This document shows, in pieces, positions 12,686 through 12,902 of a stretch of DNA of 64,000 bases. Source of the stretch: Minisyncoccota bacterium (lineage in GTDB: Bacteria > Patescibacteriota > Minisyncoccia > Moranbacterales > UBA2206); NCBI GenBank assembly GCA_031291955.1, contig JARLIA010000005.1, forward strand, positions 209,057 through 273,056, read 5' to 3'. Position numbers and translations under genes: made by a program. Under the pieces are notes generated by a model. The model was not told where the DNA came from. It was given only the letters and a program-made list of their open reading frames with translations, and did not search any database. Within the stretch, counting starts at the first letter, position 1. The number at the start of each line of letters is the position of its first letter.

Positions 12686-12714
12686 CCTCAAAATTTGCTA
12701 TACTGGTCTATCGT
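12686..12714 (+). promoter_or_regulatory. near-consensus sigma70 promoter TTGACA-N17-TATACT
   Basis: TTGACA at 12686, TATACT at 12709; a candidate sRNA unit lies downstream. Confidence 0.5.
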
Positions 12715-12719
12715 ACCTA

Positions 12720-12902
12720 AAAACTCAAATAAGCCTTGATTTTCACGCTTTCGCGGCGAAGTTCCGGAAAAAATTACCCTCCTTAGTTTTTGCCGGGTGA
12801 AACGCATTTTCGGATGATAATTCGTTCGAAGATGTCCCTTCGGCGCGGAATCGTGGAAGGCAAAAAGAAAACACTATCGGGAAACCAGATAGTGTTTTTT
12901 GA
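12720..12902 (+). ncRNA. candidate small RNA (~180 nt) from the promoter at 12686 to the terminator at 12866-12902
   Basis: No convincing ORF or RBS inside; bounded by a strong promoter and an intrinsic terminator; the ORF-track protein at 12549-12800 spans the promoter and is rejected. Confidence 0.3.
12866..12902. terminator. rho-independent terminator (AAACACTATC-ggga-aacca-GATAGTGTTT + TTTTT), probably bidirectional with pth
   Basis: 10-bp stem plus T-run on + strand; T-rich on the opposite strand as well. Confidence 0.6.

Follow-up and report, generated by a model that had tools for sequence, protein, structure and literature searches.

The alpha-proteobacterial RNAs AbcR1/2 and NfeR1 (with CCUCCUCCC motifs) are trans-acting small RNAs (sRNAs) with anti-Shine-Dalgarno (anti-SD) loops, and RsaE/RoxS of the Firmicutes are trans-acting sRNAs with C-rich loops; sRNAs of both kinds pair with ribosome-binding sites. 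The ribosomal anti-SD sequence has the motif CCUCC as its core. The CPR bacteria (Patescibacteria) are uncultivated and mostly episymbiotic, with reduced genomes, and to our knowledge almost nothing is known about their regulatory RNAs. The Bacteroidetes combine genomes free of SDs with a strong SD at rpsU; there the pattern accompanies the sequestration of the anti-SD by the proteins bS21, bS18 and bS6, and autoregulation of bS21 has been proposed (PMC7797042). Stem-loop TIGR arrays together with RuvC-type TasR proteins, one of them of 331 residues, have been described in CPR bacteria (Faure et al. 2025, PMC12045711).

The existence of an sRNA gene at 12711-12902 of the 64,000-nt stretch of DNA analysed here (the window) is highly probable. 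This gene resembles AbcR1/2, NfeR1 and RsaE/RoxS in standing alone with a promoter and an intrinsic terminator of its own, and in exposing a conserved unpaired C-rich, anti-SD motif in a hairpin loop. Its sequence and covariance model, however, are not similar to those RNAs (the Rfam search was negative), and it differs from them in that a single CCUCC loop is set in a three-way junction closed by a helix of 25-28 bp, and in that the host lineage hardly uses SD sites, so the set of targets would be small and unusual. The transcription unit has the following elements.

12676-12681, + strand: -35 hexamer TTGACA (sequence scan of 9500-14000)
12696-12704, + strand: extended -10 element TG-c-TATACT (TG at 12696-12697, TATACT at 12699-12704), with a 17-nt spacer after the -35 hexamer
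12711-12902, + strand: predicted sRNA of ~190 nt (promoter geometry, terminator and fold)
12866-12902, both strands: intrinsic terminator, its hairpin flanked by an A-run and a U-run (folds; inverted repeat I4)

The promoter matches 11 of the 12 consensus positions and carries the extended -10 TG in addition, and TTGACA-N17-TATACT was the top promoter-like site when 9500-14000 was scanned. The first-pass annotation had recognised the same promoter, although its coordinates (12686-12714) were shifted by +10 from the true ones (12676-12704); the intrinsic terminator that it placed at 12866-12902 was found exactly there, the folds giving a 15-bp hairpin and then a U-run that ends at 12900, ~160 nt 3' of the promoter. 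A simple terminator scan of 9500-14000 did not list this hairpin, clear as it is in the folds, probably because its stem has a bulge. From the promoter geometry we infer a transcription start at 12710-12713, and the 3' end would fall within the U-run at 12895-12900. The pth gene (12925-13500, minus strand; Pfam Pept_tRNA_hydro, E = 9.5e-56) is convergent with the sRNA and its stop codon ends at 12925. Since an A-run lies 5' of the hairpin and pth ends 25 nt off, the terminator appears to be usable by both genes, and by its sequence the hairpin at 12866-12902 can terminate the sRNA on the + strand as well as the convergent pth on the - strand.

The open reading frames (ORFs) at this position do not appear to be genes. 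One, of 83 aa at 12549-12800, spans the last hairpin of the adjacent array (which is terminator-like), the promoter and half of the RNA; the first-pass annotation, too, had judged that it looks spurious. The 38-codon TTG ORF at 12790-12906 encloses an in-frame ATG, which opens the 30-codon ORF of the first-pass annotation and is located at 12814 and not, as given there, at 12813; as that annotation had remarked, it has no SD, and it is not conserved. A Pfam search with the ORFs of the RNA region gave no match. Among the homologues described below no ORF is kept in position, frame or start codon, L016 having no ORF of >= 15 codons at all and L025 none at the corresponding position; the conserved small protein that would have spoken for coding was thus looked for and not found. 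Indels of 1-3 nt are located in the junctions and the substitutions are compensatory for RNA pairing. The ORFs at 12790/12814-12906 (30 to 38 codons) and 12549-12800 are therefore mechanically present, but that either encodes a small protein is hardly credible, and the original proposal of a non-coding unit of ~180 nt is borne out, at ~180-190 nt, by conservation, covariation and the lack of a conserved ORF.

With the window Pth as query, 80 loci were obtained from species-representative genomes, the nearest Pth being ~60% identical; an exact database look-up of the window Pth protein returned no record. RNA homologues are present in at least six other Patescibacteria genomes. The loci L007 (E = 1.5e-9) and L010 were found by nhmmer, and a three-sequence covariance model added L028. 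An unbiased scan of metagenomes with a three-block DNA pattern yielded three true loci (L087, L091 and L088, the last identical to L007) and two chance matches; this pattern was probably too stringent to pick up the divergent subfamily. With a six-sequence covariance model, L025 (E = 5.7e-13; Doudnabacteria) and a tandem pair of copies in L012 were added, and L016 matched marginally. The divergent members of the family are L025, L028, L012a, L012b and L016. A filter-free model search of 13 further CPR pth loci gave marginal matches only. In L014 a long-stem element downstream of pth has no CCUCC and was left out of the family. The two diverged copies of L012 (Parcubacteria) lie in tandem downstream of pth at 4992-5118 and 5191-5307, both on the - strand; a promoter is present at the upstream copy alone, and the downstream one terminates directly in a U-run. 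The closing helix P1 of L012a continues with its 3' strand straight into the U-run.

The genomic address of the RNA is remarkably constant. In every homologue locus it lies downstream of pth and is convergent with it, and this linkage spans divergent genomes with Pth proteins 41-60% identical; the order lytR-pth-RNA is common to the window, L087 and L091, and the flank opposite pth varies between genomes. Eight copies of the family have on their 5' side a promoter of the form TTGACA-N17 plus a hexamer resembling the -10 element, in many cases with TG: TTGACA stands at the equivalent position in L007, L010, L087, L091, L028, L025 and L012b, and the -10 equivalents among the homologues are TGCTATACT, TGCTATATT, TGCTAAGCT and TATAAT. 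Six copies end in a hairpin and U-run terminator, those beyond the window being L010, L087, L091, L028 and L025. The exception is L007, where the only hairpin is weak and AU-rich and an ORF for a membrane protein of 117 aa comes next. This predicted membrane ORF (4852-5205, - strand) comes directly after the RNA (5227-5366, - strand), between it and pth, and its SD, UAAGGAG, which is rare for the L007 genome, is complementary over 7 nt to the loop of the RNA; by its sequence, the L007 RNA may control the ORF that follows in cis.

For the predicted transcript the fold has an energy of -74.9 kcal/mol, where shuffles average -44.7 kcal/mol (z = -7.9), and none of 200 shuffles was as stable; the conserved fold is a three-way junction. 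The reverse complement folds at -49.6 kcal/mol, 25 kcal/mol worse than the + strand, and 9 of the 64 pairs in the + strand fold are G-U pairs, from which the + strand is taken as the structured one. The consensus structure of the family consists of a closing helix P1 and two hairpins, P2 and P3, with these positions in the window.

12733-12761, + strand: 5' strand of the closing helix P1, which pairs with 12838-12861
12838-12863, + strand: 3' strand of P1, with the conserved GCGGAAU (folds, alignment)
12764-12797, + strand: hairpin P2 with the loop ACCCUCCUU (folds, alignment)
12777-12783, + strand: CCCUCCU in the P2 loop, with the core CCUCC at 12778-12782 (ensemble fold, alignment)
12804-12835, + strand: hairpin P3 of 14 bp with a UAAU loop (folds, alignment)

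Covariation is found in all three helices. Both sides have changed in 14 of 25 pairs of P1, which measures 25-28 bp and in which 93.7% of the cells of the family alignment are paired, in four of the seven consensus pairs of P2 (7 bp with a loop of 9-13 nt) and in nine of the 14 pairs of P3. For the whole structure the count is 27 of 46 pairs in the seven-sequence alignment, which was fitted to the covariance model. In the same alignment standard pairs are formed in 91.2% of the cells; displacing the 3' partners by 1-3 columns leaves 44-54%, and 0 of 500 column shuffles attained any of the observed pairing measures. An independent alignment and fold of six sequences (MAFFT/RNAalifold) recovered identical helices with 19 compensatory pairs. 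The family is conserved in sequence too, at the junction AAG|UU, in the 3-nt J3/1 and in the parts UUUCGC/GCGGAAU of P1. A pseudoknot (ACCC/GGGU) between the P2 loop and J2/3, proposed by RNAalifold with three sequences, was lost with six.

In Rfam 15 the whole window, searched at the gathering score, gave no match for the RNA, and three sub-regions searched at E <= 10 gave nothing beyond terminator-driven noise: the sub-threshold scores for L10_leader (16.7 bits), His_leader (16), MCS4 (26.2) and sraL (19.3) are far under the gathering scores and have their source in the terminator region. The Rfam scan suggested in the first-pass annotation has therefore linked the RNA to no family. Full-text searches of the literature brought up no account of an RNA of this type from CPR bacteria. 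As far as its sequence allows us to judge, this is an uncatalogued structured RNA family of Patescibacteria, backed by covariation, with a clear gene structure, a fixed address beside pth and an invariant exposed CCUCC loop, and the distribution of the family can now be mapped with the covariance model.

The same results bear on the suggestion, made at first, of a 6S-like RNA, which would bind the RNA polymerase holoenzyme. A length of ~190 nt, a strong promoter of the housekeeping type and a long helix that distal segments close are compatible with 6S RNA (RF00013 and relatives), and the window has no annotated 6S RNA. However, no Rfam 6S model was matched by the isolated region, be it that of the window or that of L091, even at E <= 10. 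While 6S RNA is a rod with a two-sided central bubble, the present RNA is a three-way junction without a model match, and what might pass for its 'bubble' has a 48-nt 5' side with a hairpin opposite a 3' side of 3 nt, which offers no mimicry of an open promoter. Furthermore, the 5' leader is unpaired, so that the 5' end, unlike that of 6S RNA, lies outside the closing helix, and a separate terminator hairpin follows. We consider the 6S identity very unlikely.

The junction is also relevant to the possibility that the RNA senses a ligand or another signal, either as an orphan riboswitch-like element or as a cis-acting leader that controls read-through downstream or into the 3' end of pth, in the latter case through antisense effects or an interplay of terminators. 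Conserved bases at a three-way junction are a typical feature of aptamers, the persistence of the pth linkage in genomes with such diverged Pth would fit, and the L007 RNA, with no strong terminator, is followed by the SD-bearing 117-aa ORF, the SD of which could be sequestered by the loop. In most copies, however, a terminator comes next, and beyond it lies either a tRNA or a convergent gene with its 3' end, which leaves nothing to be regulated in cis; only in L007 does an ORF follow directly. In addition, there is no overlap between the RNA and the coding region of pth, and no Rfam riboswitch matched. A sensor or leader function is thus improbable in our opinion, and the specific route into pth is no less so.

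On its other side the RNA gene of the window adjoins a locus of quite a different nature, situated between it and dprA. An IS110-like gene on the + strand is split there into two frames, 10702-11325 and 11342-11947, the second part matching Pfam Transposase_20; the gene is also frameshifted in two independent Logan assemblies (L092 and L093). On both sides of it are stem-loop units of the form stem-GACGA-(~30 variable nt)-TGTC-stem, organised in two arrays with common stems and differing interiors.

9984-10640: stem-loop array flanking the IS110-like gene
11950-12660: stem-loop array flanking the IS110-like gene

The protein family is small and restricted to the CPR (49 matches, with a full length of ~345 aa), and like units are found beside its genes in L001 (6040-6720), L005 (4760-4830 and 6100-6700) and L006 (3560-3600 and 4780-4850). 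A full-length member of the family matches PDB 9mty, a 331-aa protein with an IS110 C-terminal domain, at E = 3.6e-11. Because the units, this match and the description of TIGR-Tas systems agree, the neighbour is most likely a stem-loop TIGR-TasR locus, frameshifted in this genome.

The RNA gene adjoins the array, 16 nt past its last, terminator-like hairpin. The first-pass annotation had considered a relation between the two; the RNA might then be an accessory or guide RNA of the TasR-like gene (tracr-like, bridge-RNA-like or an array leader). We regard this as extremely improbable, because outside the window the RNA and the Tas loci were not found together. The eight homologue loci tested have neither a Tas-like gene (tblastn) nor an array-type hairpin (pattern scan), and nhmmer, blastn and both covariance models failed to detect the RNA in the Tas loci L001, L005 and L006. 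The RNA also has its own promoter and is syntenic with pth and not with the Tas gene. Its loops and junctions are conserved between genomes and its variability is confined to compensatory stem positions, in contrast to the architecture of TIGR-Tas guide or bridge RNAs, with two variable guide segments between conserved box motifs or with two guide loops. The TIGR-TasR system thus describes the neighbour and not the sRNA, which has another structure and occurs in genomes with no TasR-like gene or array nearby; the separation of the two averts a false 'tracr-like' annotation. A conserved short hairpin, TGTCC-loop-GGACGAA, was noticed in four genomes within the 5' UTR of the Tas-like gene (window, 10640-10670; L001, 4938-4962; L005, 4933-4950; L006, 3672-3700), and looks like a circularly permuted form of the GACGA…TGTC border motif of the array units.

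The most constant part of the RNA is the loop of P2. The motif CCUCC stands at the centre of this loop in ten of ten copies of the family, the divergent subfamily included, and it alone is invariant, since the flanks of the loop differ between subfamilies; across the family the loops read ACCCUCCUU, UCCCUCCUA, UUCCUCCUU and CCCCUCCGA. In the ensemble fold of the window RNA the CCCUCCU of the loop is unpaired with a probability of 0.99-1.0. The loop resembles the 3' tail of 16S rRNA in its CCUCC and in flanks that recall CACCUCCUUA, although the RNA is a separate small RNA and not a ribosomal one. In L007 the loop CACCCUCCUUA differs by one inserted C from the universal 3' end of 16S rRNA, and the loops of L025 and L028 read AUCAUCCCUCCUA.

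The genome itself, unexpectedly, hardly uses the signal complementary to this loop. An SD-like motif at -16 to -5 was found for one of the 45 long ORFs of the window, against 6% of internal control sites. Other CPR loci are likewise SD-poor, whereas three Firmicutes loci from the same retrieval have such motifs at 3/5, 4/7 and 6/8 of their starts. The SD-bearing starts of the window are the following.

17843-18097: S21-like rpsU, with GAGGAGG at ~17827-17833 (Pfam S21 at 20.7 bits, below the cut-off)
50722: ORF 50722
63760: PIN/PhoH-like (PIN-domain) gene
Tas gene: AAGGAG

The GGAGG of rpsU is kept in three carriers of the RNA, namely the window, L088 (6345) and L087 (7346). In four loci in which the RNA was not found, the S21 homologues have no GGAGG upstream, a contrast that is confounded by relatedness. 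By analogy, an SD-poor genome with GGAGG at rpsU mirrors the Bacteroidetes pattern. The bS21/rpsU circuit has been described for Bacteroidetes only; the present host resembles them in being SD-poor with a strong SD at rpsU.

Taking these data together, we tentatively favour a reading which, as a whole statement, we would put slightly below an even chance: that this is an independent sRNA gene of a new family which acts in trans by base pairing of the CCUCC loop. The near-consensus sigma-70-type promoter would drive the sRNA and the terminator shared with the convergent pth would end the transcript; the exposed loop would then pair in trans with GGAGG-type (SD-like) sequences, and the pairing would block ribosome binding of the targets or alter their stability. 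Only a handful of mRNAs would be addressed, because the lineage hardly uses SD sites; in the window they would be those of rpsU, the PIN/PhoH-like gene, ORF 50722 and the Tas gene. That so few mRNAs are addressable makes a specific regulatory role plausible, and it also brings up another reading, mimicry of the 16S tail by the RNA.

Several observations temper this model. Among the start regions tested in the window the best loop duplexes are those of rpsU (-11.9 kcal/mol) and ORF 50722 (-11.7 kcal/mol), and they comprise only 7 bp. The strongest duplexes predicted for the loop in the window are within coding regions and not at starts, and loop-complementary sites are not enriched in the 64 kb (25 found, 35 expected). 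The complementarity to the candidate targets, 5-7 nt, is no greater than that of any SD with the ribosome. The conserved junction and the long P1 are superfluous for simple seed pairing and would equally fit an RNA bound by a protein or a ligand, and the fixed position beside pth is not accounted for by a trans-acting anti-SD RNA.

Some of these features would be expected if the RNA acted on a protein instead, either as a decoy which mimics the 16S 3' tail (…CACCUCCUUA) and titrates a protein that recognises this tail, or as a subunit of an unknown RNP. The nearness of the L007 loop to the universal 16S end, the loops of L025 and L028, the conservation of junction bases and parts of P1 in sequence besides pairing, and the SD-free genome with an SD at rpsU, as found with anti-SD sequestration in Bacteroidetes (PMC7797042), all point in this direction. 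On the other hand, the available loci show no protein gene co-varying with the RNA, and CCUCC alone is invariant, the flanks differing between subfamilies. We see the protein-binding function as unlikely, and the same grade applies to the examples of proteins that come to mind (anti-SD-sequestering proteins of the bS21/bS18 type, Era or a nuclease).

The trans-acting anti-SD reading, which we prefer, and the 16S mimicry may also be considered jointly. It is conceivable by analogy, if rather doubtful, that the CCUCC-loop RNA serves as a soluble mimic of the anti-SD in a clade without SD-led initiation which nevertheless retains GGAGG at rpsU. Such a mimic might, with a similarly small likelihood, compete with the 16S tail for the SD-bearing mRNAs (rpsU, or the Tas mRNA with its AAGGAG) or for the proteins that sequester the tail. 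If this were true, the RNA would tune the composition of the ribosome or silence SD-led genes, often foreign ones from mobile elements; it would add an RNA layer to the bS21 feedback circuit and would be the first regulatory sRNA of the CPR with a proposed role. Should the RNA and the pattern of SD-poor starts with an SD at rpsU be connected, this would have a bearing on how SD-independent translation is regulated.

Two types of repeats were observed in the window besides the RNA. The 17-mer AATCAGTGGTTCAGACA occurs in two identical copies, at 2067-2083 (+ strand) and 13489-13505 (- strand), where 0.01 exact copies are expected; the copies lie directly upstream of the start codons of the ORF at ~2087-3057 and of pth, and in the lytR-pth spacer the pth copy contributes to an inverted repeat. 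Tandem heptamers, (TGAAAAT/GAAAATT)n, are found in many intergenic regions just 5' of genes, often as inverted pairs ~100 nt apart, with 37 matches against a chance expectation of 1.7. They are located at 8654-8682/8788-8809, 15846-15909, 23053-23074/23180-23208 and 25913-25934/26040-26068, and further at 32329-32357, 53180-53208 and 58952-59072, and may represent the binding site of a regulator or a promoter-associated element.
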